From a virus: DNA of 64,000 bases. The DNA is taken from positions 1-64,000 of the IMG/VR virus record IMGVR_UViG_3300014613_000018; one strand, written 5' to 3'. A program made the translations under genes and the position numbers. This document shows positions 32,430 through 58,819 of this stretch, in pieces; the first letter of the stretch is position 1; every line of letters starts with the position of its first letter. The notes under the pieces are model-generated. The model made no database searches and was not told where the DNA came from. It was given only the letters and a program-made list of their open reading frames with translations.

Positions 32430-32748
32430 TAATGACACACACCAATATTTAGTTATTAATAGTGGTGAATGGTGGACTTGTGAGGAAGTATTTGATGCTG
32501 ATTTGTATGACATGGTAATTCCATTGAGTAATATTTCAAGGTCTGCCAACGGTGCAAGAGTCGGGGAGTTGGAGGAAGATGCCAAGAGAATGCGCTGGAT
32601 GCTTTCTGGCAATGGCTACTTCATGGAAGAACAGGGACTATGTGGGCATGGGCCATGTGGTGAAGAAGAGCAGAACAAGGCAAGGGCAGAGATAGACACG
32701 GCCATGAGATACCTCACCCCTCCAGCCACGGGAACGGAGGAGAAATGA
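32416..32748 (+). CDS. Chimeric hypothetical protein (AT-rich 5' half, GC-rich 3' half)
   Basis: Composition shift near RVGELEE; ends LTPPATGTEEK. Confidence 0.6.
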   Translation: MSKNDNDTHQYLVINSGEWWTCEEVFDADLYDMVIPLSNISRSANGARVGELEEDAKRMRWMLSGNGYFMEEQGLCGHGPCGEEEQNKARAEIDTAMRYLTPPATGTEEK

Positions 32749-32915
32749 AATGTCCATTGTGCCTCAAAGAGATTGAACTGAAACCAAGAACAGTAGAAGA
32801 CTTGTGCTGGATGGCAGAAAAAGCACAAGCAAGAGGACATGACGAGCTTGCCGAGCGCATCTGGCAAATAGCTGAAGAGATGGAACGGCAGGAAGCGGAG
32901 GCCAGCCATGAGTAA
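32745..32915 (+). CDS. 56-aa protein MKCPLC...EAEASHE (not in ORF track)
   Basis: ATGA overlap, GGAGG RBS; C-terminus shared with 57557..57784. Confidence 0.65.
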   Translation: MKCPLCLKEIELKPRTVEDLCWMAEKAQARGHDELAERIWQIAEEMERQEAEASHE

Positions 32916-33132
32916 GACCGTGGAGCAGATGGCGAGGGAGTTGGCTGAAAAGAAACCGTGTCTGCTTTACTCTTTCGGTGTTACTATAAGTGGTAGTCTA
33001 TTATGTGCCCCTGATCCGTATGCGCTGGAAGGCTGTACTGAGTGTTGGTTGACGAATCTCACTCCTGCCGAAATCACCGCCAAGTACGAAACTCTGATGA
33101 CTGAGAAGGAACAAAATAGGAAGGATTCTTAA
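32908..33132 (+). CDS. Small Cys-containing protein, paralog of 57340..57564
   Basis: MSKTVEQMARELAE...PAEITAKYE. Confidence 0.7.
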   Translation: MSKTVEQMARELAEKKPCLLYSFGVTISGSLLCAPDPYALEGCTECWLTNLTPAEITAKYETLMTEKEQNRKDS

Positions 33133-33529
33133 CATTTTACTAAAACTATTTAATTTACTACTTACTACTATTTCATTACACCCCTTACACTCATATAACA
33201 TTAACCCTCAAGAGGTAGTTGTAAGTTACTATGAGACAGGAAGTATTACTGCAACAGGTGAAATTTACAATCCTGATTTACTTACTTTTGCTTCACCTAG
33301 TTTACCTTTTGGTACTAAACTAATTGTTAGAAATGGTAAGATTGAAGTTAAATTAAGGGTAAATGACAGAGGCCCTTTTGCAGTAGACAGTACAGGTAAA
33401 GCAATCTACCCATTACAACCTCATCCAGTTAGGAAGTTAGATTTAAGTAGAGGTGCATATTTAGCATTGTTTGGTGAATTAGATAGTGGTGTAAATGTAC
33501 TTGAAATAGTAGAAGTGGAGTTTCCTTAA
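33125..33529 (+). CDS. rlpA: RlpA-like (double-psi beta-barrel) lytic transglycosylase, non-canonical or lost start (not in ORF track)
   Basis: Manual translation: SYY..TATGEIY.PDLLTFA..LPFGTKLIVRN..RVNDRGPF..RKLDLSRGA; hydrophobic N-terminus; no ATG/GTG/TTG before the domain. Confidence 0.85.
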   Translation: MLNILLKLFNLLLTTISLHPLHSYNINPQEVVVSYYETGSITATGEIYNPDLLTFASPSLPFGTKLIVRNGKIEVKLRVNDRGPFAVDSTGKAIYPLQPHPVRKLDLSRGAYLALFGELDSGVNVLEIVEVEFP

Positions 33530-33538
33530 AGGAGTAAT

Positions 33539-33901
33539 ATGAAACTTATAGGTGAAGATACACAGGAATTTCTTAATGAGCACTCTAAAGTAAATGAATA
33601 CTTGAATGTGCTTGAAGCTGATTTTTCAGCAATAGGAATAAATGATAATTATGTTGTACTAACTAATATTGGAGTAGAAGATGAAAATATACCTTGTGTA
33701 TGCTTCTATTTTACTTCAAGTGGTAAGCAAATTACACTTCAACAGGGTTCAGATATACTGGCAGATCATAGTGAAATGTTAGTAGACCTAGATGTACTTA
33801 TTCATTTTGCCTATGTAAGCAAGGAAGAAATTGACTCCTTAATTGCCAACGATAATAGAGATAACAGAGCAGAAATGTTCTTGAATACTGTGAGCAGCTA
33901 A
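33539..33901 (+). CDS. Hypothetical acidic protein
   Basis: AGGAG RBS. Confidence 0.65.
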   Translation: MKLIGEDTQEFLNEHSKVNEYLNVLEADFSAIGINDNYVVLTNIGVEDENIPCVCFYFTSSGKQITLQQGSDILADHSEMLVDLDVLIHFAYVSKEEIDSLIANDNRDNRAEMFLNTVSS

Positions 33902-33902
33902 A

Positions 33903-34100
33903 TTGCCACACTATGATTTCAAATGCTTAGTATGTGGCAATGTACAAGAAGTAAAATTACCTATTACAAGTGAGGTACAAGAAATGCCATGCGAAGTGTG
34001 TGGATGTTTAGCTAAAAGACAAATTGGTAAAGGTGGATACCTAGAGTTTAAGGGTGAAGGTTGGTATGAAACGGATTATAAAAAGAAAGGTAAGAAATGA
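33903..34100 (+). CDS. FmdB-family zinc-ribbon protein
   Basis: PHYDFKCLVCG...CEVCG...FKGEGWYETDYK. Confidence 0.85.
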   Translation: MPHYDFKCLVCGNVQEVKLPITSEVQEMPCEVCGCLAKRQIGKGGYLEFKGEGWYETDYKKKGKK

Positions 34101-34357
34101 AAATATTTAAGGAAACTTTAGCAGTAAAAGATGAGCAGAGTCTCGCTCTCTATGCAGATGCAGAAATTTTAACTGTACAAGTACAAAAAGGTGTTCCTCG
34201 CATTTGGTACACAACTAATCAAGTAAGAGGGCTTAAAAGTGTATCAATTTATACTCATGGTACTGGACATGAAATAAATCCTAATGCTGGAAGATATATT
34301 GGAACCTATCAATCACATGATGGAGGATTAGTATTTCATGTGTTTGAAGGTAAATGA
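34097..34357 (+). CDS. Conserved phage hypothetical protein
   Basis: ILTVQVQ...GTGH...YIGT.Q...LVFHVFE pattern. Confidence 0.7.
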   Translation: MKIFKETLAVKDEQSLALYADAEILTVQVQKGVPRIWYTTNQVRGLKSVSIYTHGTGHEINPNAGRYIGTYQSHDGGLVFHVFEGK

Positions 34358-34587
34358 TGCCGGATTACAGTGGTTGTTTGAATAAAGGTTGTATTTACAA
34401 ATACAACTGCTCAAGGTATATGATGGTTGTGAATAATCCTGAATGGCAGACTTATTGTCATTTTGAAAAAGGTAAAGATGGAATCTGTGAAGGTTGGTGG
34501 CCTGTTAAAGATGCTCCATTTAAGTGCCACACACAGGAAGAGATGGAAGAGTTTGAAGCTACTACAGCACAATTTAAGAGACCTTGA
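34354..34587 (+). CDS. Small Cys-rich phage protein
   Basis: MPD..C...C.....C.RY...WQ.Y..F. Confidence 0.65.
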   Translation: MMPDYSGCLNKGCIYKYNCSRYMMVVNNPEWQTYCHFEKGKDGICEGWWPVKDAPFKCHTQEEMEEFEATTAQFKRP

Positions 34588-34649
34588 CAAATGTGAGTTA
34601 GGTGTTATATTACTTTTGTTGTAACTCTAACTGAAAGGAAATTGAAATG
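34584..34649 (+). promoter_or_regulatory. sigma70 promoter plus conserved leader
   Basis: TTGACA-N16-TATATT then AACTCTAACTGAAAGGAAATTGAAATG. Confidence 0.75.
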
Positions 34650-35221
34650 ACTTGGAAAGAAATAAGAAAAAGTTATTTAAGAGGGGCTACGGAGGCTCAA
34701 GATGTACTTACTTCTCCTAGCAACTGGACTGATTTGATGTATTATATTCATTGCTCTAGGCTTATTCTTGGTTTTGTGTTGGGGTTCTTGGCTGCTTTTT
34801 TTCTTTTTGTGATGTAAGGAAACTAAAATGAAAAATCTACTTAGCCGTTGGAACCCTATAAGCCTACTATTCTTCGGGATTGCAGGAATATTCATGTTAA
34901 TGGGATTACTTAATGGATTTGAGTATAAGGCACTTAATCTAATTGTAGTAATAGGCAGTGTAGTAAATGCACTTCTTATTCAGTACCAGAAGGAGCATAA
35001 CATTGATTAGAACAATACTGCAATGGGCATTACCAATCAGTGTATTTCTGTTTGGTATTCCTAAAGTTTACAGATGGAATGCAGCACAGGATGGACACCA
35101 AATTTCTTATTGGAAGAGTTGTAAATGTGTGTGGATAGGAATAGTTCAAGTCGCCTTTGTACTGGCTCTTGTTTACCTGTTTGGTACGGGTGTTTGGGCC
35201 TTCTTTAGTTGGCTATATTAA
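34647..35221 (+). CDS. Three consecutive small membrane proteins (34647..34817, 34828..35010, about 35003..35221)
   Basis: Hydrophobic helices; first ORF found manually behind the conserved leader. Confidence 0.55.
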
Positions 35222-35514
35222 TGCTTCACAATATTAAACAAGAAGCTAAGTGTGCATTTTCAAGTGATACTTATGTGTGGTATTACAAGTGTAGAGAGAA
35301 TGGCTGTAAACACTTGAAAGTTAGAAGGTGAGATTGGAAGCCTATTGATAATTGGAATGATTTACAGCAAATTAAAAACTTTACATTTGGTAAGGAAGCA
35401 GTGGCAATAGAAGTATATCCTAGAGAATCTAAATTAGTAAATGAAGTAAACATGAGGCACTTGTTTATACTGACACAAGAACAAATAGTAGGCTTGAAAT
35501 CGAAAGGACTGTAA
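35221..35514 (+). pseudogene. Conserved phage gene interrupted by in-frame TGA at 35329-35331
   Basis: HLKVRR*DWKPIDNWNDLQQIKN...AIEVYPRESKLVNEVNMRHLF continues in the same frame. Confidence 0.7.
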
Positions 35515-37077
35515 GTGAAAACAATAGAAGTACCATACTACATTGACAATCTTGATCTAAAGAAGGATAAGGCTGTGATAATGACAGATTTATGTAAAGT
35601 ACTTCGAGATGGTGGTATTCCTTGTTATTACAGTACTAAAGTAAATGATATAATTGTACAGTCAGGTAAATTAGCATACACTAAAACTGAAACAGGTTTT
35701 AACTTCATTTGGGAGAGTGAATAATGAAAGAGAAAATAATTAGAGTGTTAATGTACATCTTTACTCCTAAAAAGTATGGCATGAAGTATCATCCTTGTAT
35801 AAAGTGTAAGTGGTGTGAGTTAGATAAGAATGTGTCTCCTTATTATTTTGAGTCTCTACCTCCAGAAAGTAAAATATACTTTTATTATTGTCAAGTTCCT
35901 TTGAAACAAGTGAGAAAAGATATGCTAACAGGTTGTACACTAAAATACAATAAACCTGTAAATGAATCTATTTGTACATTTAGGATTGCTACCAATAGCG
36001 AGGATTGTGGCTATAGAGGTAAGTACTGGGAAGCTAAGAGTGCGGAATGAAATGAATGAGTTAGAAGAACCTGTGGTTGATGATACTCCACAAGATGTAG
36101 AATATTGGAAGAATGCTTTTGCCATGAAAACACAACTGCTGTATAAGGCTAGGTGCGAAAAGATAGATTACTTAATTATGTATTATAGGTTAAGAGATAG
36201 TGTTGAAGGTTTGAAATGTTCATTCTGGAGAAGGTTGAAGTTTCTGTTTACTGGTAAGATAGAAATAGAGGATTAAAAATGCCTAAATCAATGCCTCAAC
36301 CTAATTTTGAATCTTCACAGGAATATTTTAAGGAATACTGTACAGATCAGATTGAAAAGATTACTAATGAAATGGTTAGACTTGACAAACGATTGAAAAA
36401 GTTGAATATTGCAGGTAACTTGTATAAAGAGCGATTTGGAGAGAAGCTTATATTGGAGGAATCTTAGTGGAAAATTGTATAGATAAGTTACTGGAAGTGA
36501 TTAAAGTAAGAGAGAATCACACTGTAGGTAAATATCAAACTCCAGATGAATCTATTCTGAGGTATATGGATAAGCTTGAGAAACGGTATGATAAAGCAAT
36601 GGATGCCATTGTGGATGCTTCTGTTGTTGCTGAAAATGGAAGTATAGCTCCTGCAAAGCTTCAATATGCTTATTTAACTAAAATAATGGCAATTCTTGAT
36701 TATCAGAAGTGTCAAGATATTTCATTTGTTAATAATTTATCTGATTTGGAGGACTAATGTTATGTTTTAGATGTGAACATAGAGCTAAATACTTAGAAGC
36801 AACTTCAAGAGGTGACAAGTATGCACCTAGACCTAGAAGTGAATGTGGTGACATTAATAGTAGTAAAATAGGCTGTTATATGTTTGAACCTTGTCATCCT
36901 GTTGTAACTGAACCTCCTAAAGGTGCTCCAGCAGTATTAAGGTTTCAAGCACCAATGTTAGCATCAAGAGAATATGCTGTAAAAGTATTAGAACGAGAAG
37001 ATAACATTAAACTTGAAGTAATCTATGAAAATGGTAAACAAGTAGCATTAGGATGGAAGGTTAAAAATGAGTCCTGA
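35515..37077 (+). CDS. Run of coupled hypothetical ORFs (35515..35724, 35724..36050, 36052..36276, 36279..36467, 36467..36757, 36757..37077)
   Basis: Stop/start overlaps and RBSs; two are Cys-rich. Confidence 0.6.
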
Positions 37078-37480
37078 ATTAGAGTATAAACTATTCCATA
37101 AGTATCCTACAATATTTAGACAGCGAAAATTGCCAATGACACAATCTGCAATGTGTTTCGGATTTGAGTGTCAAAATGGATGGTACAACATTCTGGATAA
37201 TCTTTGTCAGCATATTCAGGATTATGTTAATGAGAATAATTGTGGCCCTGTAGAAGCTGTACAAATAAAAGAAAAATTCGGTGGGCTGAGATTTTATATT
37301 ACAGGTGGTGATGATGCTATTGATATGTTTATTCAAATGGCAGAAGAGGAAAGTTATCATACTTGTGAATATTGTGGTACTAAAGAGAATGTTGGTATGA
37401 CACGAGGCTGGAATGTAACTTGTTGTGCAGATTGTCATAAAAAGTTTAGATCAGAATTAACATGGAGTAAAAATGAATAA
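37067..37480 (+). CDS. Conserved phage protein with QIKEKFGGLRFY motif
   Basis: FEC..GW, QIKEKFGGLRFY, CEYCG, GW...C..C. Confidence 0.8.
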   Translation: MSPELEYKLFHKYPTIFRQRKLPMTQSAMCFGFECQNGWYNILDNLCQHIQDYVNENNCGPVEAVQIKEKFGGLRFYITGGDDAIDMFIQMAEEESYHTCEYCGTKENVGMTRGWNVTCCADCHKKFRSELTWSKNE

Positions 37481-38099
37481 AACGGATTTAGTTTGTTTGG
37501 ATACATTCAATACTTATAAACCTGTTCCTAATGACATCCTTCATCTTCCAGAGAAGCTATTAGATTATGGTATTAAATGGAAAGGTAAAAGACTATATGG
37601 TGAAGGTGCTGTTAATTGTAATCATGTGCGTATTTATGTAGGAGTGTTTGATGGCATTCATGTTGGGTTTGAATGGACACATCCTAGAGCCAGATTCATT
37701 ACTATTGAAGACTGGATGATGGATTCTGATTATGCTAAGATTTATAGATACAAAGACCTTATGAAAAAAGATTTTAGTAGGCAAGTAGCTAATTATTTAA
37801 GTGTTTATGAAAATTCAAAGTATGATTATTTACAGCTTCTAGGCATAGCTTTAGGTATTAAGTGGTTACAAATGAGTGATTACCGTAAAGTGTGTGCTCA
37901 AGGTGTACTAGATACTCAAGAATATGTATTAAGAAGAGTACATGATACAGAACCATTATTTCCTGAGTCTGCAAATTGGGCAACCTTACCTTGTGCTTGG
38001 ATGAATCATACAGAGAAATTTAGCCTAATGAATGGTGGAAGTAATTCAACATTACTGAAACCAGAATTAAAAACATTTAATGCTAACTGGTTAATATGA
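37473..38099 (+). CDS. Permuted papain-like NlpC/P60 (YiiX/YebB-type) hydrolase
   Basis: NHVRIYVG precedes KYD and VCAQ (His before Cys). Confidence 0.6.
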   Translation: MNKTDLVCLDTFNTYKPVPNDILHLPEKLLDYGIKWKGKRLYGEGAVNCNHVRIYVGVFDGIHVGFEWTHPRARFITIEDWMMDSDYAKIYRYKDLMKKDFSRQVANYLSVYENSKYDYLQLLGIALGIKWLQMSDYRKVCAQGVLDTQEYVLRRVHDTEPLFPESANWATLPCAWMNHTEKFSLMNGGSNSTLLKPELKTFNANWLI

Positions 38100-38117
38100 A
38101 CCTTACAAAGGAGTCTA

Positions 38118-38657
38118 ATGTTACTTAATATACTTTTAGCTACAAGTGCAATATTACTATTAAACAGTGAGTTTGTTGATAATTCTAATGTGGTGTATGA
38201 CACTCTAATGATTAAAGACAGTAATTATAATAACTATTTATACATTTCTGAAACTAATTATTATAAAATTACAGGGAATACTTATGAGATAATTCCTGCT
38301 AATGAAGATTCTCTAATTTTTACACTTACTAATCCAATAGGAGATGAAGAGTTAGAACCTTATACTGGTGATATAATACTTGATCCTAATTTTGTAAGAA
38401 GAGTAAATGAGCAAGGTGATACCATATATGTTTCATTTAGTGAGGCTGGAGAAGATTTTGATTTTTCAATAGTAGAGACACCAATTATTACTGAGAGAGA
38501 AGATAATCTATTTGTGTGGATAGAGGAAGATGGAACAATGTTTCCTTATCCTACAGAACCTTATTCTCCACCGGTATCATTTAGTACAATCTTAATTGTC
38601 TGTTTTGGAGTGTGTATTATTGGACTATTAGGTGTGATTTTATGGAAGGTAAGATAA
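38118..38657 (+). CDS. Acidic exported protein with C-terminal membrane anchor
   Basis: Hydrophobic N-terminus; C-terminal TM helix plus WKVR. Confidence 0.65.
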   Translation: MLLNILLATSAILLLNSEFVDNSNVVYDTLMIKDSNYNNYLYISETNYYKITGNTYEIIPANEDSLIFTLTNPIGDEELEPYTGDIILDPNFVRRVNEQGDTIYVSFSEAGEDFDFSIVETPIITEREDNLFVWIEEDGTMFPYPTEPYSPPVSFSTILIVCFGVCIIGLLGVILWKVR

Positions 38658-39004
38658 TGAAAGGATTTGTTATTTGCAGTGTGCGAGGCCAATCAGAGGA
38701 ATATAGAGTTAAACTTGAACTGTTTGTGTCCAACAAAGAAACTCATGGTTGGGTTATCCATTTGCCTCACAGAGATACAGATCAAAAGGCTAAAGGTTAT
38801 GATATTTGTAAGCAAAATGCCGAAGCTATTAAAAACGCAGATAAAGTGTTTGTGTTTTATAATCCTGAGTCACAAGGAACTCATTTTGATTTAGGAGTGG
38901 CTTTTGCTTTGAATAAACCTATTGAAATTATTGAGTCAGTTGAATATGGAGAAGAAAAGTCTTATCCTAGAATGCTGCAAGAATGGGTAGACACTTTTGA
39001 ATAA
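38657..39004 (+). CDS. Nucleoside 2-deoxyribosyltransferase-like (NDT fold) protein
   Basis: LPHRD...IC..N..AI..AD.V....SQGTHFDLGVAFALNKPI. Confidence 0.7.
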   Translation: MKGFVICSVRGQSEEYRVKLELFVSNKETHGWVIHLPHRDTDQKAKGYDICKQNAEAIKNADKVFVFYNPESQGTHFDLGVAFALNKPIEIIESVEYGEEKSYPRMLQEWVDTFE

Positions 39005-39989
39005 AATTCTTCTTATTGACGCAGATTCTACAATTCCTAATTTAGCATTAATGAAATTATCGGCTTATTACAGAGCTAAAGGATATATGATAGATTTGAT
39101 GAAATTGAATTTACCTTATTATCCCAATAAGAAAAAGAGACATCACGCTATTTCTAACTTAGGTTATGATAAAATATTCTGTAGTGTTATTTTTGAAGGA
39201 AACTTACCCTATATTCATGGTGACAACATTATATTTGGAGGTACTGGTGTAGACTTAACGACAGAGCTAGAACCTGAAATAGAGAACTTACAACCTGATT
39301 ATACTATTTATCCTGAAAATGATACTTCCTATGGCTTTATTACAAGGGGATGTATTAGGAATTGTTATTTTTGTAAAGTACCTAAAAAGGAAGGCCATAT
39401 TAGACAAGTTAATAAACCTACAGACATTATTCAACATAAAAAAGTTAAGTTCATGGATAATAATATTCTTGCACTTCCCAATCACTGCGAGATACTAGAA
39501 GAATTGGCATATTTAAAAGTTAATTGCCAGTTTAATCAAGGGCTAGATATAAGGCTGTTAACTAAAGAAAGCTCTGAATTATTATCTGCGATGAATTATC
39601 TTGGGGGTAGATATACTTTTGCGTTTGATGATAGAAAGCATATTAAAATAATAGAAAAACAAATGCAGCTATTATCTTGGAGGAGGCCATGGGAGATTAG
39701 GTTGTTTTGTTATATTCATCCTACAATGCCTATTGAGGATACCTTGTTTCGCTTAGACTGGATGAAGAAAAATAAGTGTTTACCTTATGTTATGCGAGAT
39801 ATTAGTTGTTGGGATTCGGAATACTCTCATTTTTATATCAGTCTTGCCAACTGGTGCAATCATGTACATTTATGGACTTCAATGCCTTTTGAAGACTTTG
39901 TAATTAAGAAAAATCCTCAGTTAAAGCATACTGAAAGAAATAAACAAGAAATAGAAATTTATAACACAGCACTAAAGGCCATTAGTTAG
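38997..39989 (+). CDS. Radical SAM protein
   Basis: TRGCIRNCYFC CxxxCxxC; PNLALMKLS, DNNIL, FNQGLDIRL. Confidence 0.9.
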   Translation: MNKILLIDADSTIPNLALMKLSAYYRAKGYMIDLMKLNLPYYPNKKKRHHAISNLGYDKIFCSVIFEGNLPYIHGDNIIFGGTGVDLTTELEPEIENLQPDYTIYPENDTSYGFITRGCIRNCYFCKVPKKEGHIRQVNKPTDIIQHKKVKFMDNNILALPNHCEILEELAYLKVNCQFNQGLDIRLLTKESSELLSAMNYLGGRYTFAFDDRKHIKIIEKQMQLLSWRRPWEIRLFCYIHPTMPIEDTLFRLDWMKKNKCLPYVMRDISCWDSEYSHFYISLANWCNHVHLWTSMPFEDFVIKKNPQLKHTERNKQEIEIYNTALKAIS

Positions 39990-39997
39990 GAGCAATA

Positions 39998-40306
39998 ATG
40001 TCTGATTGGAAAGAACGCTCAATTAAAAAGAAGGATTATCGTAGAGGCGGATTAGAGCCTGATCCTCCTAGAAGTAAAAGTAAGAATAAAGCACCTAAAA
40101 TTTATCGAGTAGAGTATAAGTACAATAAACCTTTGTTTGGTAAAGATGACTGGTGGGGTTTTAGTACATACAGGGATTTACAGTTAGCATTAGATAGAAT
40201 TGAAAAGTTAAAGAGAGATATGAGACAATTTGAATGCTCATTATACAAGTCATTTAGAATTGTTAATAAAAAGACTAAAATAGTAGAATATTTGGAGGAA
40301 AGTTAG
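39998..40306 (+). CDS. Basic hypothetical protein
   Basis: AGGAG RBS. Confidence 0.6.
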   Translation: MSDWKERSIKKKDYRRGGLEPDPPRSKSKNKAPKIYRVEYKYNKPLFGKDDWWGFSTYRDLQLALDRIEKLKRDMRQFECSLYKSFRIVNKKTKIVEYLEES

Positions 40307-40308
40307 CG

Positions 40309-41421
40309 GTGAGTTTAGAAACATTTAACCCTCTATCTGTTAGTAGTAAGTTTGCTATTTGTGGCCTTCCTATTCGAGTAGATACTTATAAAACTTGCTC
40401 CTTTGGGTGTAAGTATTGTTTTGCTAACTATCGAAAAGTAATGCACACTGCTGATGAATTACAAGTAGCAAACTTAATGAGTCTGAAAAATAAATTAATT
40501 AAAGTTTATGATAAAAAGCAAATTAATCCTAATAATTTCTTAGATTTTTTATTGACAGAGAATATTACTTGGCATTGTGGTGGGATGTCAGATCCATTTC
40601 AACATGCAGAAAAAGAACTTAAAATTACATCTAAAATGCTTGAAATTACCAATGACTTTGACATATCCATTCTTTTTTCTACAAAAACGGATACTACTTA
40701 TGATTATACTCACCTAGAATCTGATTTGCATTCTTTTCAACTAAGTGTTACTTCTGCAACTACTAATACTGAGTTAGAACCTAATGTGCCTGCTCTTGAA
40801 AAAAGAATCCAGTTTTTTCAAGAACTGAAAGATAAAGGGTTTGCTGTAGGTATTAGAATCCAGCCTTTTATTCCAAGTGTTTCTAATGCTAATATAGTAG
40901 ATTTATTTAAGGAAGCGGATTATTTTTCTATTGAAGGATTAAAACTCGTGCCTCAAAATAAAGAGCAAAAACAATTTTTACTAAATACTTTGAATCTTAA
41001 ATCTACTGATTTTATTCAAAGAGGATTACTGAATCTTTGTCCAGAATTAAGGTGGACTCTTTATCAAGATTTAATTGAAAGACTACAGCATTACAATATA
41101 CCATATTCTTTAGCAGATAATGATTTGCACCATATATCCTCTAGTAAGTGTTGTTGCGGAGAGCCTTTAATTAAAAAATCAACTGAGTTCAATAATACTG
41201 CTTTATTTAAAAAATATGGCAAGTATTACACTATAGATGAAGTAAATAAGGCAATAGGAGCTTGTAAAAAGTGCAAAGTTGCATCCTTGTTTGCTTCTAA
41301 TAGGCAGGAAGAGGGAGTTACAGTTCAAGACTTTTTTAATTTAAGATTTAGTAGAAAATCTTCTCCCTTTTCTCCAAAATTTATGTTCTATCCTCAACCT
41401 AAATTGAACTTATTTAATTAA
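40309..41421 (+). CDS. Radical SAM protein, spore-photoproduct-lyase (SplB)-like
   Basis: DTYKTCSFGCKYCFA, GGMSDPFQ, STK, LEPNVP, RIQPFIP, CCCG. Confidence 0.85.
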   Translation: MSLETFNPLSVSSKFAICGLPIRVDTYKTCSFGCKYCFANYRKVMHTADELQVANLMSLKNKLIKVYDKKQINPNNFLDFLLTENITWHCGGMSDPFQHAEKELKITSKMLEITNDFDISILFSTKTDTTYDYTHLESDLHSFQLSVTSATTNTELEPNVPALEKRIQFFQELKDKGFAVGIRIQPFIPSVSNANIVDLFKEADYFSIEGLKLVPQNKEQKQFLLNTLNLKSTDFIQRGLLNLCPELRWTLYQDLIERLQHYNIPYSLADNDLHHISSSKCCCGEPLIKKSTEFNNTALFKKYGKYYTIDEVNKAIGACKKCKVASLFASNRQEEGVTVQDFFNLRFSRKSSPFSPKFMFYPQPKLNLFN

Positions 41422-41437
41422 AATTAGAAGGAGAGAA

Positions 41438-42229: not shown

Positions 42230-42239
42230 AATGCAAAGA

Positions 42240-49951: not shown

Positions 49952-49956
49952 GCCTT

Positions 49957-50036: not shown

Positions 50037-53000
50037 TTCACCATTACGATTTTTACCGTTTTTGATACAATATTCATCATACATTTTATCAATCTTATTA
50101 GCCTCAATATCCTTGAGTATAGCCAGTATAGTATCTCTTTTATACATAAGGTTATTGGCTACTGTAATCCTTTTATCTTCGGGGTATTCAGTAGTATTTT
50201 CAATATCATCAATAGCACTATCTAAAGCTGTGAGTTTAATGTTAAGATAGTGTACCATTGCATTTTTAAGTATGATTTCCATATAAATATCCTTTCAAAA
50301 ATCGAGTTTAATGTTCAGTAGTATAGAAGTTCAAAGTATTCTCAGTTATTGGATTCTGAATAGTAATAGAAGTTAAAATACCCCTTATCTATACCCCTTA
50401 CCCCTATTGGAACATAGCCCCTTTTTAATGATAGCCCCTATTTTAGATAGTAGCCCCTTATTATCTTATTTTTGAAATTTTAATAGGATGTATTCTATAC
50501 TCCTCACCTTTAATAGTCACATGATAGGCAATAACTTTACTATCTTCAACTACTCTACCTGAAATAGTTGCAGTAATTTTTCTCTTATTAGGTAAGTGAA
50601 CCCAAACAAGAGTACCTATATTCATTATTCTTACTCACCCCAATCCGATTGTGAATCTGTTTGTCTAATGTCAGTCAAGATTACAACACGTCTACCATAA
50701 GCATGTACTACTTTATGACAATGGTTGCACTTGAAATTTACAGAATTACTACCATAAGCATCAATATTCCCAGTAACAAAATAAGGTACAAAATCTTCTT
50801 TATTACAGTAGGGGCATTTAATCCTGTCATTCATTTCATTATCCTTTTAATTTAGAGTTTTCCTAACACTTCTATTATAGCACAATTAGAAAGTGTTGTC
50901 AAGTGCTAGTTTTTACATCCATTTATAGCCCTGTGTTAATAGTTCATCTTGTTTCTGTTCAAATTTCTTTTTGTTTGAAAATGTATAGACCCCAAAGAAT
51001 TTACTTCCATCAGGATACTTAGATACTCCATCATGGTAGTTTATAACATACTTTACTTTACCTATGTTATATTGAAGGTGCATTAATTTCTCATTCATTA
51101 TTCTTCCCTCCACACAAGTATTTGTGCATACCTGCTAAATGAGATTGAATTGCCAATATTCCAGCCGTAATGAATAATAGTGGTGTCACCTTCAATTAGC
51201 CCTGTAGTGTTTATTACTTCATTGACACTAAATAGCTGATTGTTTAAGAATATTGAGTCAGTAATTTTAGCATCCTTTGCATCAATTACTTTAAGCATGA
51301 TAATTCCTTTCAATTTAGAGTTTTCCTAACACTTGAATATAGTACATTTAGAAACCATTGTCAATAGCTTGTTTGGCTCCATTTAGTCCTGCTCTTTGAG
51401 TAATACAGGTTCCATCTTTAACAACATCCCAAACTTGTCCAGAGATTCTTTCATAGATTAGGTAGCCTTTATACTCTTTAGGTTTTACATTAGTAATATA
51501 GTATTCAGGCCCATAATTGTTAGTTACTGGATTGTGCCAAGGGTTTTTATAGGTTGCCATTATTAATCCTCCAAATCTGCTATTATATTTTCTCTCCATT
51601 TAATTTGCCAAGATCTGTCACTGTTAAATGGTCTTTTACTCCATACCTCAATGTCTTCTGTAAGCATGGTGACTATTGCTTCTGCTGTTTCACCTTCTAC
51701 ATAATTGTAGTCAGAATTATTATAGTACCAACCATATTCATCATAAAAGGTATCTTCAAAGGTACTATCAATATCCTGTTCTATACAGTTATGGTGCATA
51801 TCCTCGGTAAGTAGAATATCATATAATTCTTCATCATTGTTATGCAGTACCTTGAATATCTTACCAGCTTGTGTAGTATGCTGTGCAAAGTAATATACTC
51901 TCATTTCAATTTCCTTTCTCAGTTACCAAGAATAGGCATCTTTTTCCTTAGTAGTATTATCATGCAACACACTAAAATAATTTTCTTTTAAGGTTTCTAC
52001 TTTTCCAGTGTAATCAGCATGAAGCATTACTCCATTAAAATTTACTACTATTTCACATTTAAGATCAGTAGCTAATCTTATCATTTCAGAACAAGTATCA
52101 GTGATAGTTTCTCCACCAACTGTTTCCATTTTTAGAATTAACATTTCAATTTCCTTTCAATTTAGAGTTTTCCTAACAGTAGTATTATAACACTTAGAAA
52201 TCTAAATGTCAATAGGTCTTACTTCAAAACAGATACCTTCAGGTATAGCAATGAATATCATGTTAGTATCTGTAAAATTCATTACTCTAAATTCTATCTG
52301 AGTAATACCTAACTGATCGTTATGAAATGCTTCCTTAGATAGTATTGTCACTGTAGTAATACTTCCATTGACTACATGAAGTATTTCACTGCCAATTGTA
52401 ACATCATCATAAGTAGTAACTTCTAGTCTTAGTTTCATGTTAGTATCCTTTCAATTTAGGTTAGTAATATACATTCTGCTTTAGTGTAATACAGAATATT
52501 GTTAAGATATAATCCTAGTATTCTATTAGAAGGGTAAGTATCATGTAGTACTCCATAGCGAGTAAATGAAATAGCATGTTCTACTGCTTTGATAGTACCA
52601 ATTCCATCGGGAGTATTTACCTTATCTTCTATTTTCATTTTAGTTTCCTTTCAATCTGGTAAAACATTTGAAGGTACTGTTATTGAATACAGTTCTGCAA
52701 TGAAAACTAATCCAGCTTCCCTATCTACTGCTATTACTCCAGTATCAGCATGTTTAGCACAGTAATTATTAGCATCTTCTTCACTTGTAGCTATGTGAGT
52801 TACTCTAAATATCTTACCCATACTTTTACAGTAAATATGCAGATTGTTTGTTATGTTCATGTTATTCCTCTTCCTCATAAGGTTCAAAGATTGAAGGGTT
52901 AATACCTTTGTAAATATTACCTCTTTCACCTACAGGAGTAACCCAGATAGTATTTTTACATACCTTGTAAATTTCATAAAAGCGAACACAAGGATTGGTT

Positions 53001-53918
53001 TTAGAAGTAACTTTCATTCTTGTCTTACAATCTTCAATCTTCATTTCAGTTTCCTTTCAAAATAGAAATAGCTTTTTCTGCTCTTTCAATGATAGTAAGC
53101 TGAATCTTACTTTTTTCATCATATATTTCAGCATTAGGAGCATATTCTTCTATATAAATCAATTCAGCTTTAGCTTCTGCTATGTAGTCATTAAGTACAG
53201 ATATAGCATGTGCAAACATTGAAGACATTTCAATTTCCTTTCTACTGTGCTAAGTGACAATCTTCATGGTAAAGACCGGCAGGACATATTGCGTTACCTT
53301 CCCAGTATACTATTGTATCAAATCTAGTAAATTCTTCTCCACAATGTATACAGCAAGGGGTTTCTGGGCAAGTGACTGTAATTTCCATTTTTTTCACCTT
53401 TCAAAATAGAGTTTCAATTTCCATGTACATATAATAACTATTTTCTAAATGAATGTCAAGGGGTAAAACAATTTGGTTTTACCCCTTTGTGTAAGTAACT
53501 TCTACCATCTAACAAAGATCACTATATCTTCCTGATAGCCTTTTCTCTTTGCAATTATTCCGCAAGTAGCCTTATTGCGAGTATGCAGATACTTACCTTT
53601 CATTTCAGGGTGGTTTTTACCTGTCATTAAAAAGGCCATATAGGTAACATAGAAATCTTCTTGAGATACTTCACAAAGAATATCTCCTCTTTCAGTAGTA
53701 TTAAGTAGCTCAAGGAAGTTAAGCTTTCTATATGTTCTCTTATCCTTCTGTACTGGCTTTTCAATAGGAGGTTCATATATACCTTTAAGTGTAGTAGAAA
53801 AGCCTGATTCCTGTGCTAATTCTCTTGCCTTACTTCTGGAGATATTAGCTGTAAATATTCCATTAGGACTAAGATAACCAAAGTGGCCTGTAGTATCCTT
53901 GTAAATTCCGGGGTTCAT
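50025..53918 (-). CDS. Array of small early-type genes (50025..50282, 50461..50625, 50631..50834, 50913..51098, 51098..51298, 51348..51560, 51563..51904, 51923..52144, 52202..52438, 52456..52638, 52651..52860, 52862..53044, 53046..53228, 53242..53388, 53502..53918)
   Basis: Most preceded by TGAAAGGA(A)..ATG leaders; functions not recognisable. Confidence 0.65.
50834..50902 (-). promoter_or_regulatory. sigma70 promoter plus repeated leader
   Basis: TTGACA-N17-TATAAT; AGTGTTAGGAAAACTCTAAATT. Confidence 0.8.
51298..51364 (-). promoter_or_regulatory. sigma70 promoter plus repeated leader
   Basis: TTGACA-N17-TATATT; AGTGTTAGGAAAACTCTAAATTGAAAGGA. Confidence 0.8.
52144..52212 (-). promoter_or_regulatory. 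sigma70 promoter plus repeated leader
   Basis: TTGACA-N17-TATAAT; TGTTAGGAAAACTCTAAATTGAAAGGAAATTGAAATG. Confidence 0.8.
53388..53487 (-). promoter_or_regulatory. Hairpin abutting sigma70 promoter plus leader
   Basis: AAGGGGTAAAAC/GTTTTACCCCTT stem runs into TTGACA-N17-TATTAT. Confidence 0.75.
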
Positions 53919-54010
53919 TTTAGTATCCTTTCAATTTAGAGTTTCATGTACCTATAATAACTAATTCTTACAAGATTGTCAAGAGGATAGGTATCTATGC
54001 CTATCCTCTT
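53918..54010 (-). promoter_or_regulatory. Hairpin abutting sigma70 promoter plus leader
   Basis: AAGAGGATAGG/CCTATCCTCTT stem runs into TTGACA-N17-TATTAT. Confidence 0.75.
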
Positions 54011-54022
54011 ATTCCATTTAGT

Positions 54023-55147
54023 TTACTCAGGTTCAGGCAGTCTCACAGGCATAAGTAAGGCTATTCTTTCAGTATCCTCATACAATACTGCTGTACTGCA
54101 ATCCTTAACCTTGAGTACCAGAGGATTATTGTCAACAAAGTTAGCAATATCCTGAAGCAAGCAAGCATTAAAAGCTATCTGCCCATTATAACTACCTGTT
54201 CCACATTCGGATTCCCATGACATGCTATCAGTGTTCTCACCATAGGCAGTAATTTTATCATTGTTATAAGCGAGAAGTATCTGATGTGTCGCAGGGTTAA
54301 TCAGCTTGATAGGAATGTTGTCTATTACTTTTCTGTCAAGGTTAATTACTTCCTGATTGTTTGCAGGTATAACCTTTTCATAGGGAGGATATGGCCCTTC
54401 AACTTTGCGTATACTAATCATCCAATCCTCACCGGAAAACTGGGTATAAGTAATGTCACCAGTAGTAATTTCACCAGTAGTAAGGTTAGTAACCTTTGTT
54501 AACAGGCTACCTATTGCCATTGGTGCATACTCTTTCCTATCATAGCTTTCACTTGCCTTAACAAGCTGTAGAAGTGGCTTGATTCCATTACCATCTATAA
54601 TGGTACTCTGATGGAACATTTCAGGTGCATTCTTAAATATCCCCATTACATGCCCATTAGTACCAACCAATTCAGACCTTTCCTTATTGTAGCATATTCC
54701 TGTAAGACTGGCTCTAATTTCATTCCTATCAGCTACAAAGGGCATCAATGAAACCAGCTTGTCAACTATTGCAGTAGTATGGTCTGTTCTTGTGTTGTCA
54801 GCAATCTCAGGCAATGAAGGATAGCTTTCCCGGCTGTCAGAAGGAAGATTAAAGATACCTATGGGAGTGTGTATGTTGAGTTTCTTATTGGCTACTGTAA
54901 GGCTGATTTCACTACCTTTAGGAGTAGCATCAATAGCCTTTACAAGTGAAGCATAGTCAACTACTGCCGTGAAATCATTACTGGTAAGGTCAATTACTTT
55001 TACTACAGTAGTAATGTCAAGGTCTGTAGTAGAGAATGTAGTCTCACAAGTGTTATTTTCAATCAGTACATGGCTCAATGAAGGTAGAGAAGTTTTAGGA
55101 GGCACATGCAGAGCCTTGAGTTTCTTAACCAGTGTTTCCTTGTTCAT
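54023..55147 (-). CDS. dnaN: DNA polymerase III beta sliding clamp homolog
   Basis: 374 aa; TDLD, LTGI, VGTNGH, EGPYPPYEKVIP, IAFNA.LL.D, LLMPVRL. Confidence 0.85.
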   Translation of the reverse strand: MNKETLVKKLKALHVPPKTSLPSLSHVLIENNTCETTFSTTDLDITTVVKVIDLTSNDFTAVVDYASLVKAIDATPKGSEISLTVANKKLNIHTPIGIFNLPSDSRESYPSLPEIADNTRTDHTTAIVDKLVSLMPFVADRNEIRASLTGICYNKERSELVGTNGHVMGIFKNAPEMFHQSTIIDGNGIKPLLQLVKASESYDRKEYAPMAIGSLLTKVTNLTTGEITTGDITYTQFSGEDWMISIRKVEGPYPPYEKVIPANNQEVINLDRKVIDNIPIKLINPATHQILLAYNNDKITAYGENTDSMSWESECGTGSYNGQIAFNACLLQDIANFVDNNPLVLKVKDCSTAVLYEDTERIALLMPVRLPEPE

Positions 55148-55225
55148 TTTAGTTTCCTTTCAGTTTCAAGTTTAAGTAACCAGTCATAACAATTAGAATA
55201 TAGCTAATGAAAATCTAATTGTCAA
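55147..55225 (-). promoter_or_regulatory. Dedicated sigma70 promoter plus leader of clamp gene
   Basis: TTGACA-N17-TATATT; TGAAAGGAAACTAAAATG. Confidence 0.75.
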
Positions 55226-55228
55226 GTG

Positions 55229-55585
55229 CTAGCTTTTAGCCTTTTCAATGGCTACTATGAAAGACCCACAACAATTATAACAGGAGTATCCTATCATGGT
55301 TTCATCCTCATAAGGTTCAAAATAGTCCCTTGAACCACCAACCAGATAGATACCTTCAATGTTCAAGTTATGGTTTCTATCATTAGCATTTTTGTTAGCA
55401 TTAAGTGAAATTGGAATATGCTTAATGAGAGTAAATTCAGCATCCTTGTTATAAGCACAGCCATCAATCATACCATCAAATTTAGATTTAACCTTAATGA
55501 ACAGTGGAGTTTTAGGATCATTTCTGTACTTGTTAACAAAGCTTTTGAAGGTAGCCTTTGTGGGTTTCTTTTTAAGTATTATCAT
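55229..55585 (-). CDS. Conserved phage hypothetical protein
   Basis: T.ATFKSF, SKFDGMIDG, GIYLVG.SRDYF, YNCCGSF; own promoter at 55660. Confidence 0.75.
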   Translation of the reverse strand: MIILKKKPTKATFKSFVNKYRNDPKTPLFIKVKSKFDGMIDGCAYNKDAEFTLIKHIPISLNANKNANDRNHNLNIEGIYLVGGSRDYFEPYEDETMIGYSCYNCCGSFIVAIEKAKS

Positions 55586-55906
55586 TTCAATTTCCTTTCA
55601 AGTTTAAGTTTAGTATCAATTTCTACACAGGTAGTATAACAGGTTATTGCTAAATGTCAACCCCTAAGTTGAAAATTATCTAAATCGTTGAAACACTTGC
55701 ACTTGACATCTAAATTAGGCCACCACATACTCCAGTGTTGAAACAGGATCACAAAAACTAAAAGTGAAATTAGATATTCGGGAAAATCATGGCTAGATTA
55801 CAGCTAAATCCACAAAACTACTTTTAGTATTACAAAATGTTTCGTGAAACTCATATTCAGGTTAGCAATTAGATAAAAGGAGCATAGAATGATGATTGAA
55901 TTTTCC

Positions 55907-55941
55907 CGTGACGTATAGCAAATTTCCTCTTAGTCAAAAAT
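55907..55941. repeat. Third copy of CGTGACGT-N14-CTTAGTCAAAAAT
   Basis: Same arms and 14-nt spacing as 49965 and 50002. Confidence 0.9.
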
Positions 55942-56357
55942 TGATGTTTTTTAATTTCAAAAATTATTATTTAATGGTACTTTTTACAAGTGCATTACAT
56001 TATTTAGTCATTTCAAGTGACCTATTTTAACATTAAATAACTTGATAAATATTACTTTAATTGTTACTTAAACTAGCATTACAGTTATGTGTGTTCAATA
56101 ATAAGTCTTGTACAATAAAATTGAACATGCTAAAATAATGAACAAGTAGTATTAAATAATCAGTCTAATTAATTCTAACACTTACTATTAAGTTTATATT
56201 TTGTGGATAATTTAGGCCGTAATAATGTAGTTTTAATAGGTAAGTTAAGTAGTATACTGATTAGAGAAGTTCAACAGTTATTGAAAGTTAAATGTGAGAA
56301 TTTGAATAAAGAAAAGGACACCCCTTTAAGATGCCCTTTACTCCCTGTAAGATAGCC

Positions 56358-57347
56358 CTATTTAAGTGTACTCCCTTTATTGTTTAGTAATATTCTAATA
56401 TTTTTATTGTTAACTAGAACATTATTACTGACGGCATGGATAGCGTTACCTATATCTACATTAACTTTAGATTGTTGTGTAAGGAATTGTAAATAGGAAG
56501 TTCTTAAACCTATACAGAACAATGTTAATATTACTGTAGTAGTATAGAAGAACCATATAACTAGGGTTAATAGAATGTAGATTAACATTTAGTATCCTTC
56601 GCCTTCTGGATGTCGGCGAGAACTGATTCTGCTATTAGGGTAAAAGGATAGGCATCGCACCAATCAACTGAACTGATGTTTTGCCGACGAGCCTCACGAA
56701 ACAATTCGCACAAGTCGTTTAGGCTGCTCTCCATCCTCCCCACCATCTCGGCGGTTTTGCGGAGGCTGGCGTTTTCTTCTGCAACCAATGCTGCCTTTTC
56801 AAGTGCATCCTTCACTTCATCCAAGTCAGCAATTTTGATTGTTATAGTTGAACTAGCCATTATCCTTCTCCCCTTCCTGATGTGTCTGTCATGTGTGGTA
56901 GAATTTCGGGTTCTGGAGGAGAATACCACAACTTGACATATTCTCTGGGTTTACCTTGTATTTCTTGAATTGTTATCTCTCTGGAAAATTGGTAAGATGT
57001 GGCAAATGTTGACTGTGCCATTACTTCTCCCCTTCCTTTCCCTGCGGGGTGGCGAGGGCTTCATGCTTCCTCATCCATTCGGGCACACTATCACACTCCC
57101 CTGGTTGACCTATCTTGAGATAATGCAACAAAGCATCTCCAATACCACTGCGAGGATCGATCTTTCCTGATACAATCTGACAGGCACACACATACGCCAG
57201 TCTGTTGGCTCCTATCTTGTCAATGTCCCCCGCCCTCTCCTGTGCCGGGGTGAGGGGGGTAATTTTGCCTGACTTCATTCCACAGGCATATTGCGTCATA
57301 CCTATAACAGACGACAGCCACTCCGCATCCACCACCAGCTTACTCAT
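56358..57347 (-). CDS. Hypothetical ORFs (56358..56588, 56582..56860, 56860..57021, 57021..57347)
   Basis: TAATG-type coupling; GC-richer than genome average from about 56590. Confidence 0.6.
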
Positions 57348-57564
57348 TATCGGCTCCCTTCTGCTTCATCATCTCTTCGTACTTGGCGCGGATTTCGGCG
57401 GGGTATGCAAACGCTAACCAACAATGGAAACATGTGTAGTATTCGTCCCCCTCTCGTGAAATCTCCATGTTGGGAGCCACGCATTTCTTAAACATATTGG
57501 GGCATGGCATAGAATCATCTTCAGCCAACTCCCTCGCCATTTCCTCCACGGTAGGTTTACTCAT
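57340..57564 (-). CDS. Paralog of 32908..33132
   Basis: MSKPTVEEMARELAE...PAEIRAKYEE; ATG at 57564 after GGAGG. Confidence 0.7.
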   Translation of the reverse strand: MSKPTVEEMARELAEDDSMPCPNMFKKCVAPNMEISREGDEYYTCFHCWLAFAYPAEIRAKYEEMMKQKGADNE

Positions 57565-57784
57565 GGCTGGCCTCCTCTTCCGTGGCTGGAGGGGCTTCCG
57601 GGGCATCCATCCACGGCTGACAGCCATGTATTTCGGACGGGCTTAGCTCTGTTTGGTATCCACACGCCTCGCAGTAGCACCCCCAATGCTGGACAAAATA
57701 GGTATGAATGCCCATTCGGAATGCAACCTCTCCACACTTGGGGCAGACATGTGAGGGGGCTGCAGGATTTCTGTCTCTCATCAT
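57557..57784 (-). CDS. Zinc-finger protein, Lar restriction-alleviation-like
   Basis: CPKCG...YCEACG...W; ends EASHE. Confidence 0.5.
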   Translation of the reverse strand: MMRDRNPAAPSHVCPKCGEVAFRMGIHTYFVQHWGCYCEACGYQTELSPSEIHGCQPWMDAPEAPPATEEEASHE

Positions 57785-58461
57785 TCACCTTCCTTCGTGG
57801 CTGGAGGGGTGAGGGCAGCAGCTACTATTGCCATGACTCGGTTGGTGTTTGCCATGTTTAGAACATTCTTGCCTAAACACACTCCATATATTCGGTCAAG
57901 TGCGTTTCTGGCCACACCGAGTTCCCCCTCCAACTCCCCGACCCGTTTGCGGAGGCGGTTATTCTTTTTTATGAGATTCCGTACCATTCCGTAGATAGTG
58001 TTATCTATGCCTTCTCCGGCGACAGCATCATCTAAGAGTTCCAAAATAGCTAGTGCTGTTTCTTGTGGGACATAGCTCTTCTCCAACTCCCCGACCCGCT
58101 TCCTGAGTGCGTCCTCGGTGGGGCGGTAACTCTGCCACTGTTCGACCAAATTTGCAACGGTATGGGCTATGGCCTCTACCACATATTCGTTATCAGCCTT
58201 ATGCTCGTCTGGAGTAAATTCTCCCACGAAGTATTGAGCCACATGAACCATCTCATGCACAATCACAAATAAGGGGCAAGAATCAATAGGTACAGACAAC
58301 CTGATAATGCCAATGTTGTGAGATATTTCATAATCTGGATTCAGCTCAAATTCAGCAAAGTTGCCTTTCTGCAACTTAACATTGTCAACAACAGAGACAA
58401 ACAATGGTGCTTGTTCTCCTGCTGGAAACAATCTAAACGGGCACTTCCTCTTCTCACTCAT
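57781..58461 (-). CDS. Mosaic protein with HExxH motif and two RKRVGELE repeats
   Basis: Start MSEKRKCPF at 58461; VHEMVH; ends LTPPATKEGE. Confidence 0.65.
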   Translation of the reverse strand: MSEKRKCPFRLFPAGEQAPLFVSVVDNVKLQKGNFAEFELNPDYEISHNIGIIRLSVPIDSCPLFVIVHEMVHVAQYFVGEFTPDEHKADNEYVVEAIAHTVANLVEQWQSYRPTEDALRKRVGELEKSYVPQETALAILELLDDAVAGEGIDNTIYGMVRNLIKKNNRLRKRVGELEGELGVARNALDRIYGVCLGKNVLNMANTNRVMAIVAAALTPPATKEGE

Positions 58462-58819
58462 TATCGGCCTCCCCGTCGTGTACGGAGCCGTATTCAATTC
58501 TTTCCGACACAAAGGTTCCAACTTCGGAATGATGCAGAATCAGACTATCACCATCCGCCGTATAGAACTCACGCCAGTACATTGTTTGTGGGCTGTAAAT
58601 TATGCCTGCACCATAGACAGATGCAGTCCACTCAAGAACAATCATGCCATCTGTATAGCTGACTCCAATGCACTCCATGTGCTGATAATTGAGCCTTGTA
58701 TCTATTAAGCGAATTGTGGTACCATTCTGCATTGTCATGGTCTGGCCTGGTTCAACTTCAACTTGGTTAGCTATGTAGCTTTTGGGTATCAATGCCAGAA
58801 GTATCAATATCAAATTCAT
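58454..58819 (-). CDS. Putative exported protein
   Basis: MNLILILLALIP after GAGGAATTGAAATG; flanked by 22-bp repeat. Confidence 0.6.
   Translation of the reverse strand: MNLILILLALIPKSYIANQVEVEPGQTMTMQNGTTIRLIDTRLNYQHMECIGVSYTDGMIVLEWTASVYGAGIIYSPQTMYWREFYTADGDSLILHHSEVGTFVSERIEYGSVHDGEADNE

Follow-up and report, generated by a model that had tools for sequence, protein, structure and literature searches.

The DNA considered here (hereafter the window, 64,000 nucleotides) covers positions 1 to 64,000 of a virus record of 114.5 kb in IMG/VR (IMGVR_UViG_3300014613_000018; 35% guanine plus cytosine (GC); completeness estimated at 70%) from a low-GC, large, myovirus-like phage, whose products encoded in the window include tail sheath, baseplate wedge, tape measure, an SbcD-like exonuclease and a sliding clamp. 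Near-identical DNA occurs in groundwater metagenome runs of several studies and in one groundwater metatranscriptome. The window contains two GC-rich islands of small genes on opposite strands, island A (51% GC) and island B (48%, its modules ranging from 0.41 to 0.56), with flanks of 26–35%. Islands A and B probably represent one family of mosaic operons of small genes in two different versions, both captured by this phage, and the modules of such operons have been exchanged at short conserved linkers. The coordinates of the features are collected in Table 1.

Blocks shared by the two islands and the sequences between them

Island A (32400–33150) was compared with the whole 114.5-kb genome by an exact-match scan. 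The matches with island B were 32560 to 57927 (16 nt), 32560 to 58081 (15 nt), 32712 to 57796 (19 nt), 32717 to 57580 (15 nt), 32897 to 57557 (19 nt), 32929 to 57520 (21 nt) and 33078 to 57376 (13 nt), in every case on the opposite strand and with their order kept. Considering only the matches of at least 15 nt in the genome, six are collinear to island B and one other, a 15-mer at 33028 and 24417, is taken as chance. The reciprocal scan from island B gave an identical set, and the 9-mer GGGAGTTGG has five occurrences in the window, every one inside the blocks, versus 0.28 expected. The initial annotation of this DNA had listed these blocks from inspection of the letters; all of them are present and collinear, far beyond chance, at coordinates correct within 1–2 nt.

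The blocks, h1 to h5 in Table 1, differ in kind. The block h1 (RVGELE) is a linker that precedes three different modules of about 44 amino acids (aa); B gene 2 has two of these modules, and the third is in A gene 1. Gene-end codons make up h2 (LTPPAT), as they do the internal repeats R1, R2, R4 and R5 of island B. Concerning the gene junctions, the layout GGAGGCC-N4-ATGAGTRA recurs at several others, including one in island B and one in L011, a 54% GC contig from another metagenome. The left edges of both islands are at or beside a block, and at each of them native sequence is fused in frame: in A gene 1 for island A and, for island B, in the leader mini-ORF (a small open reading frame).

Between h1 and h2, the A interior and the B modules are unrelated (hhalign probability 0.07%), and between h2 and h3 no BLASTP alignment was obtained for A gene 2 with B gene 3, so A gene 2 is an alternative occupant of the LTPPAT–EASHE slot. 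Between h4 and h5, A gene 3 and B gene 4 are diverged homologues (43% identity, E value 1e-12). The sequence between the blocks had been described as largely non-homologous, which proved right for two of the three intervals and wrong for the third (MARELAE to AEI.AKYE), where the homologous proteins keep their terminal helices; for this pair, the condition that the initial annotation had itself named as refuting its proposal applies.

At block residues identical in A and B, 28 of 31 informative codons are identical too, compared to 11.8 expected from the codon usage of the islands (P about 4e-10), and the non-preferred codons AGG and TTG are found among them. For the variable middle of the two 74-aa genes, codon identity falls to 2 of 9. 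Silent-site identity being high in the blocks and low in this middle, these segments differ in age or in constraint.

Both 74-aa proteins belong to a 4-Cys small-protein family, with 31 cluster representatives of 56–90 aa at E ≤0.001 and without a match in Pfam or PHROG families. The family motifs, all of them matched by the two genes, are an N-terminal helix (P)TVEEMARELA, a middle CP..C...C..CW, which is hypervariable and differs in length among members, and a C-terminal helix PAEIRAKY.EM. The AlphaFold2 model of the 74-aa protein has a mean pLDDT (predicted local distance difference test) of 77, with values of 86–91 in the helices and 53–65 in the middle.

These data bear on a simpler reading, according to which the islands are old homologous operons that diverged without recombination at the blocks, and the blocks are their most constrained peptide motifs and translation signals. 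The 74-aa pair agrees with this, as diverged homologues of equal length with the Cys skeleton kept, and so do the location of h4 and h5 in high-confidence helices around low-confidence loops and the presence of a ribosome-binding site, a start and a stop in h3. However, such divergence does not account for silent sites that are identical within the blocks and not between them, nor for the domain in the A interior, which belongs to a separate family devoid of the blocks and shows no resemblance to B at the profile level. The direct repeats placed around single genes and the variants that lack genes exactly at the blocks, both described below, are also in disagreement with it. On balance, it is judged rather unlikely.

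The contig L011 contains a 4-Cys family member 42% identical to the 74-aa protein, in which the first 20 nt of h4 (ATGGCGAGGGAGTTGGCTGA) are unchanged. This gene sits behind a DUF551 gene, not behind a zinc ribbon, and h4 is there 80 nt from the start codon. As a side observation, the L011 protein has a 27-residue N-terminal extension (673–738), with the direct repeat GATACCGTACGGGAAYAAA present twice, 48 nt apart; the extension has the appearance of a small insertion or duplication of recent origin, immediately before h4.

The conservation of the h4 core in L011 enters in the assessment of two other readings. One is gene conversion inside a single genome, in which the inverted islands would swap short patches and their most similar stretches would stay identical. 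The coexistence of both copies in one genome with a RecA-like recombinase is favorable to it, as is the confinement of identity to stretches that are already alike at the protein level. The 20-nt core of h4 being identical in another metagenome, one-genome conversion is not the whole story; besides, several blocks are common to GC-rich contigs of other elements, and conversion gives no account of the gene-bracketing direct repeats of island B. We consider it very improbable. The other reading is that the blocks are RNA or DNA signals (translational coupling, mRNA structure, regulator or small-RNA sites), which would account for their frozen silent sites. The five occurrences of GGGAGTTGG and the unchanged h4 core point in that direction, and so do the positions of some blocks: h3 stands at a junction of coupled genes, h4 is found at most 14 codons from a start, and h5 and the gene tails are just upstream of the next ribosome-binding site. 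Nevertheless, the predicted RNA folds of six block regions were no more stable than those of shuffled sequences (z from −1.3 to +1.2), by which an explanation based on RNA structure was rejected. The place of h4 in L011, 80 nt into a gene that follows a different neighbor, does not fit a signal either, and h1 and h2 have neither a start codon nor a ribosome-binding site anywhere near them. A function at the nucleotide level seems therefore improbable.

The 110-aa A gene 1 is a chimera. It is made up of an AT-rich native N-terminus (residues 1–45), the RVGELE linker, a RMRWMLSGNGYFMEE domain and the LTPPAT tail. The change from AT-rich to GC-rich sequence that the initial annotation had placed near the first block occurs at about 32540, 20 nt ahead of it. 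The homologues of this protein, 58–78% identical, cover only residues 55–97, with other N-termini and with neither RVGELE nor LTPPAT. In two proteobacterial metagenome-assembled genomes (MAGs; 65% and 70% GC) the RMRWMLSGNGYFMEE domain is a standalone protein of 61–64 aa encoded directly upstream of an integrase gene. This 'RMRW.L.GNGYFMEE' protein is at 2962–3156 of L106 (an alphaproteobacterial MAG) and at 2971–3156 of L107 (a Burkholderiales MAG), the gene immediately downstream being in both of them tyrosine-integrase-like. Such adjacency suggests that it is a conserved small partner of integrative elements, e.g., excisionase-like or regulatory. Together with L011, these loci fit the earlier proposal of an import from higher-GC temperate elements.

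Direct repeats, variant contigs and recombination functions

Island B contains five exact direct repeats of at least 13 nt (R1 to R5), while shuffled sequences give 0.04, so that the reality of the further repeats reported earlier within this island is confirmed. Each of them brackets one gene, one module or a group of genes (Table 1). Recombination inside any of these pairs would delete the bracketed unit and leave the junction intact.

Variants of island B were found in three groundwater runs (X1, X4 and X6), among contigs of low depth that match the island only in short collinear blocks; those of X4 (depth 6–10 versus about 600 for the main phage) continue into GC-rich sequence, and X4 contigs 7 and 9 measure 1805 and 1472 nt. 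In X4 contig 7 and X1 contig 4, position 57557 is joined to 57339, i.e., h3 to the start of B gene 5, without the 74-aa gene, and eight letters, ATGAGTAA, are shared at the joint. The same X4 contig 7 has one RVGELE unit versus two in the window, and in it and in X6 contig 18 the 247 letters of the window around B gene 6 are replaced by 151 others. In X4 contig 9, position 57796 is joined to 57576 (the LTPPAT tail of gene 2 to an EEEASHE tail), the zinc-ribbon gene being absent; both ends of the 74-aa gene are kept with a different middle, and 57230 is joined to 56782 through eight other letters, linking codon 39 of gene 5 with codon 27 of gene 7, a fusion that by frame arithmetic would be in frame. 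As these are Logan contigs assembled with k=31, false joins produced by blocks shorter than 31 nt should be impossible. Genes missing or replaced exactly at the joints in related DNA of the same samples make the locus a clear natural example of the linker route rather than a new system.

The search for the blocks in other DNA, which had been advised to catalog what lies between them, gave a mixed outcome: DNA of the same habitat has other interiors or none between the blocks, while the IMG/VR matches are in unrelated genes. In IMG/VR, h4 had no match, h3 had 7, h2 had 14 and the 15-mer of h1 at least 79, none of these matches at a locus encoding an island protein; for a 15-mer, the h1 count is by estimate about the chance level in a collection of that size. 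With no island proteins at these loci, the blocks are not widely portable words in IMG/VR. About 30 of the 79 h1 matches belong to one strongly conserved element on IMG/VR contigs of about 40% GC, often near the contig end, which reads ..KKNRPCPEVGELEGTPSKSVDLIRFY in one frame (L018, L020, L022, L025, L027–L029 and about 25 more); this stretch has no relation to the islands and may serve as an attachment site or be some other conserved element without coding function. Concerning the island proteins themselves, no relatives of the 74-aa family, of B gene 7 or of the flanking native genes 32043–32429 and 59109–59498 were found in IMG/VR, no member of the 74-aa family in GTDB genomes, and nothing above threshold for any island protein in Pfam and PHROGs. 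The INPHARED phages gave no blastn match to islands A and B and no tblastn match to the 74-aa protein or A gene 1.

Of recombinases, the record yielded a single family, RecA/UvsX, with a gene beyond the window (G000 93194–94024, minus strand, 105 bits), and an SbcD-like exonuclease gene is at 28918–30186. The initial annotation had gone further and proposed a microhomology-driven system that builds new small proteins in frame, with a possible inversion of the 24 kb between the islands, and had advised looking for a RecT/Erf/Sak recombinase. In its strong form, this would be a dedicated system, active at high frequency. In-frame chimeras speak for it, namely A gene 1, the leader mini-ORF and the putative gene 5–gene 7 fusion of X4 contig 9. 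Nevertheless, no RecT, Erf, Rad52 or Sak4 and no RVT_1, Phage_integrase or Resolvase match, that is, neither a reverse transcriptase nor an integrase, an invertase or any tyrosine or serine recombinase, was found in the record, although at 70% completeness absence is not proven. Moreover, the inversion was not seen, the contigs of X1 and X4 being collinear with the window and free of inversion or deletion joints at high depth, and the blocks are not portable words. A dedicated system is thus regarded as very improbable. Two particular candidates were also rejected: a diversity-generating retroelement, since there is no RVT_1 match and the variable middles differ in length, and a site-specific system of the shufflon or integron kind, since there is no Phage_integrase or Resolvase match, with the same reserve about completeness.

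According to the preferred reading, exchange at linkers, the operon family would circulate in higher-GC, probably temperate, phages or prophages of the same groundwater community, from which the low-GC myovirus-like phage would have taken up both versions by horizontal transfer. The blocks of 13–21 nt would be linkers of four kinds: gene tails with the ribosome-binding site, start and stop; the proline-rich LTPPAT tail; the coiled-coil domain linker RVGELE; and the terminal helices of the 4-Cys family. The modules between them would have been gained, lost, duplicated or swapped in frame through short-homology recombination. The 8–14 nt shared at the joints and the silent-site identity lead us to infer that exchange took place within the linkers, and that the variants would have been made by recombination at the blocks and not elsewhere with later selection. 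The enzymes responsible would be general recombination functions (the RecA/UvsX-like recombinase, the SbcD-like nuclease and donor-encoded ones) and not a dedicated enzyme. In this reading, the locus follows the long-known linker explanation of phage mosaicism and brings no new mechanism.

Several points weigh against exchange at linkers. The codon test is biased upward by the selection of the blocks for exact identity, and only three DNA sequences of the 74-aa family were compared. Some of the conservation of h4 and h5 is due to amino-acid constraint, both being helices that a whole protein family keeps, and h3 is mostly dictated by the ribosome-binding site, start and stop. A length of 13–21 nt is short for RecA-type recombination. 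The 19-mer of h3 was found in seven IMG/VR contigs, at unrelated gene junctions. The low-depth contigs are known from alignment coordinates and not from sequence, and at the likeness threshold of 80% diverged homologues would also appear as matching in blocks only. Finally, no recombinant, deletion or inversion junction was found in the phage's own population, as judged from contigs of X1 and X4, which possibly are the window's own source and in which rare variants are dropped.

Organization and expression of the islands

Table 1. Features of islands A and B and their surroundings, in window coordinates (strand + or −).
Feature	Coordinates	Strand	Description or basis
Island A	32540–33115	+	GC steps at about 32540 and 33100; long exact matches all to island B
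A gene 1	32416–32748	+	110 aa; chimera; GC from 0.32 to 0.55
A gene 2	32745–32915	+	56 aa; one CxxC; C-terminal EASHE before the stop; ORF list
A gene 3	32908–33132	+	74 aa; 4-Cys small-protein family; 43% identity to B gene 4, E 1e-12
Block h1	32560–32575	+	GTCGGGGAGTTGGAGG; encodes VGELE; exact match
Block h2	32712–32730	+	Encodes LTPPAT, tail of A gene 1; exact match
Block h3	32897–32915	+	GGAGGCCAGCCATGAGTAA; GGAGG ribosome-binding site, 6-nt spacer, ATG of A gene 3, overlapping TAA of A gene 2
Block h4	32929–32949	+	Encodes MARELAE, N-terminal helix of 4-Cys family; exact match, family alignment, model
Block h5	33067–33090	+	Encodes AEI.AKYE, C-terminal helix of 4-Cys family; exact match, family alignment, model
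Island B	56582–58880	−	Seven translationally coupled small genes (41–56% GC) and leader mini-ORF; ORFs, GC
Second predicted promoter	58989–59016	−	Sequence
Predicted sigma-70-type promoter	58920–58947	−	11 of 12 consensus positions; sequence; X5 RNA contigs from about 58897 downstream
Leader mini-ORF	58821–58877	−	18 codons; last 12 codons (ENGSVHDGEERN and stop) are a copy of the B gene 1 tail
B gene 1	58454–58819	−	121 aa; hydrophobic N-terminus; flanked by R1
B gene 2	57781–58461	−	226 aa; HEMVH zincin-like N-domain, two RKRVGELE units, LTPPAT tail
B gene 3	57557–57784	−	75 aa; 4-Cys zinc ribbon; flanked by R4; tail is block h3 (57557–57575)
B gene 4	57340–57564	−	74 aa; 4-Cys family member; h4 at 57520–57540, h5 at 57376–57388
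B gene 5	57021–57347	−	108 aa; ORF list
B gene 6	56860–57021	−	53 aa; flanked by R5
B gene 7	56582–56860	−	92 aa; includes 48-nt block 56729–56776 common to four low-depth contigs
Membrane-protein gene	56358–56588	−	AT-rich; upstream of terminator-like hairpin
Terminator-like hairpin	56313–56339	−	Ends the operon, after the membrane-protein gene; sequence
Repeat R1	58840–58855 and 58476–58491	−	Brackets B gene 1
Repeat R2	57342–57354 and 58456–58468	−	GCCGATAATGAGT; encodes ADNE and next start; brackets B genes 2–4
Repeat R3	58081–58098 and 57928–57945	−	Brackets one RVGELE module in B gene 2
Repeat R4	57796–57809 and 57581–57594	−	Encodes PPAT; brackets B gene 3
Repeat R5	57024–57037 and 56865–56878	−	Brackets B gene 6

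Island A consists of three overlapping genes, and both of its edges are inside open reading frames. The final eight or so codons of A gene 3 are AT-rich, the GC content falling at about 33100. Directly 3′ of island A there is an open frame (33101–33529, plus strand) with a DPBB_1 domain (RlpA-like lytic transglycosylase, E value 1e-12) and with no ATG, GTG or TTG start ahead of the domain; its 5′ end may have been cut off at the arrival of the island, or an unusual start may be used.

Island B is a whole transcription unit, formed by a near-consensus promoter, the 18-codon leader ORF, seven coupled genes, the AT-rich membrane-protein gene and a terminator. The leader ORF looks like what is left of a gene after loss of its body at a tail linker. 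In B gene 2, each of the two units is formed by RKRVGELE plus an unrelated module of about 44 aa. The one homologue of this protein, P0040, covers only residues 10–112, that is, the HEMVH N-domain, and the weak structural neighbors of B gene 2 are SprT and ImmA zincins (Atlas). In the conserved block that opens B gene 5 there is an E. coli-type Chi octamer, GCTGGTGG (57325–57332, minus strand), an octamer that occurs four times in the complete 114.5-kb sequence.

RNA contigs of X5 cover island B at 56269–57551 and 57611–58844 with at least 99% identity and end at 56269; the stretch 55736–56103 has no X5 cover, which is only a weak contrast to the covered operon. Island A sequence is present in one X5 contig, with loose ends at 57520 and 57814. 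From these contigs, which cannot prove transcription, both islands appear to be expressed, and their genes appear to be accessory genes of early type. As a separate observation, a repeat of about 30 nt, of the early promoter or leader type, is found at four sites of the window (55582–55611; 31608–31637, minus strand; 52129–52170; 63432–63460), and at two of its copies (31608 and 55582–55611) the X4 assembly is split into separate contigs, 5 and 6.

Relation to known systems and significance

Two models of phage mosaicism compete: recombination at conserved linkers, and random illegitimate joins followed by selection. To our knowledge, the linker model has few natural cases that are well resolved. 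Boundary or 'linker' sequences, within the modular theory and in lambdoid phages, were reportedly described by Susskind and Botstein in 1978 and by Clark et al. in 2001. The closest known counterpart of the present locus is such lambdoid linkers together with relaxed homologous recombination, which drives phage mosaicism (De Paepe et al. 2014, PMC3945230). In both cases, short conserved sequences stand at gene boundaries around non-homologous genes, relatives differ in what lies between, the presumed agent is general or phage-encoded homologous recombination, and the content is small accessory genes of temperate type. The features of the linker model found here are conserved boundary blocks around unrelated interiors and, by coordinates only, relatives with other modules or none. 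In contrast to lambdoid linkers, the blocks described here are of 13–21 nt and mostly coding (end codons plus the next ribosome-binding site, start and stop), one of them is within a gene, at a domain joint, and they belong to islands imported into a large low-GC myovirus-like genome with a recombinase of RecA type, not of Rad52 type.

Another related system is that of the promoter-early stem-loop (PeSL) cassettes of T4-type phages (Arbiol et al. 2010, PMC2839356; Comeau et al. 2014, PMC4122927). There, as here, short motifs are repeated around small non-essential genes in plastic regions, exchange inserts, deletes or replaces genes, and the genome is that of a large myovirus with a RecA/UvsX-type recombinase. 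Unlike PeSLs, which are non-coding units of promoter plus terminator, the blocks are coding, lie within a coupled operon and have no significant hairpin. An identity with PeSLs was thus rejected, as the folds do not exceed the shuffles and promoters and a terminator were found only at the ends of the operon.

The closest parallel for the in-frame blocks is the gp38 adhesins of T-even phages, in which glycine-rich motifs (GRMs) separate hypervariable segments (Trojet et al. 2011, PMC3157838; Tetart et al. 1998, as cited in PMC3157838). As in the RVGELE modules and the 74-aa family, conserved in-frame motifs part variable segments and are proposed swap points. The proteins and folds are different, a receptor-binding role is not known here, and the principle is here extended to gene junctions.

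A stronger claim can be made, to which we give little credence: that the blocks are active recombination hot spots, at which accessory proteins, possibly for host takeover or anti-defense, are rebuilt in frame during co-infection from a module pool of the community. If true, this would be a population-level combinatorial diversification of phage early proteins, occurring at a measurable rate, and the silent sites of the linkers would be held by selection for recombinability itself. Apart from that, the locus defines a family of small 4-Cys proteins, conserved at their ends and hypervariable in between, that could be tested for a role in phage–host conflict. The locus unites nested linkers (at gene borders and at a domain joint), silent-site identity, gene-bracketing repeats, co-occurring variants and expression in a metatranscriptome, and it shows that a large myovirus of low GC content has taken up temperate-type cassettes in spite of a difference of about 15–20 GC points.

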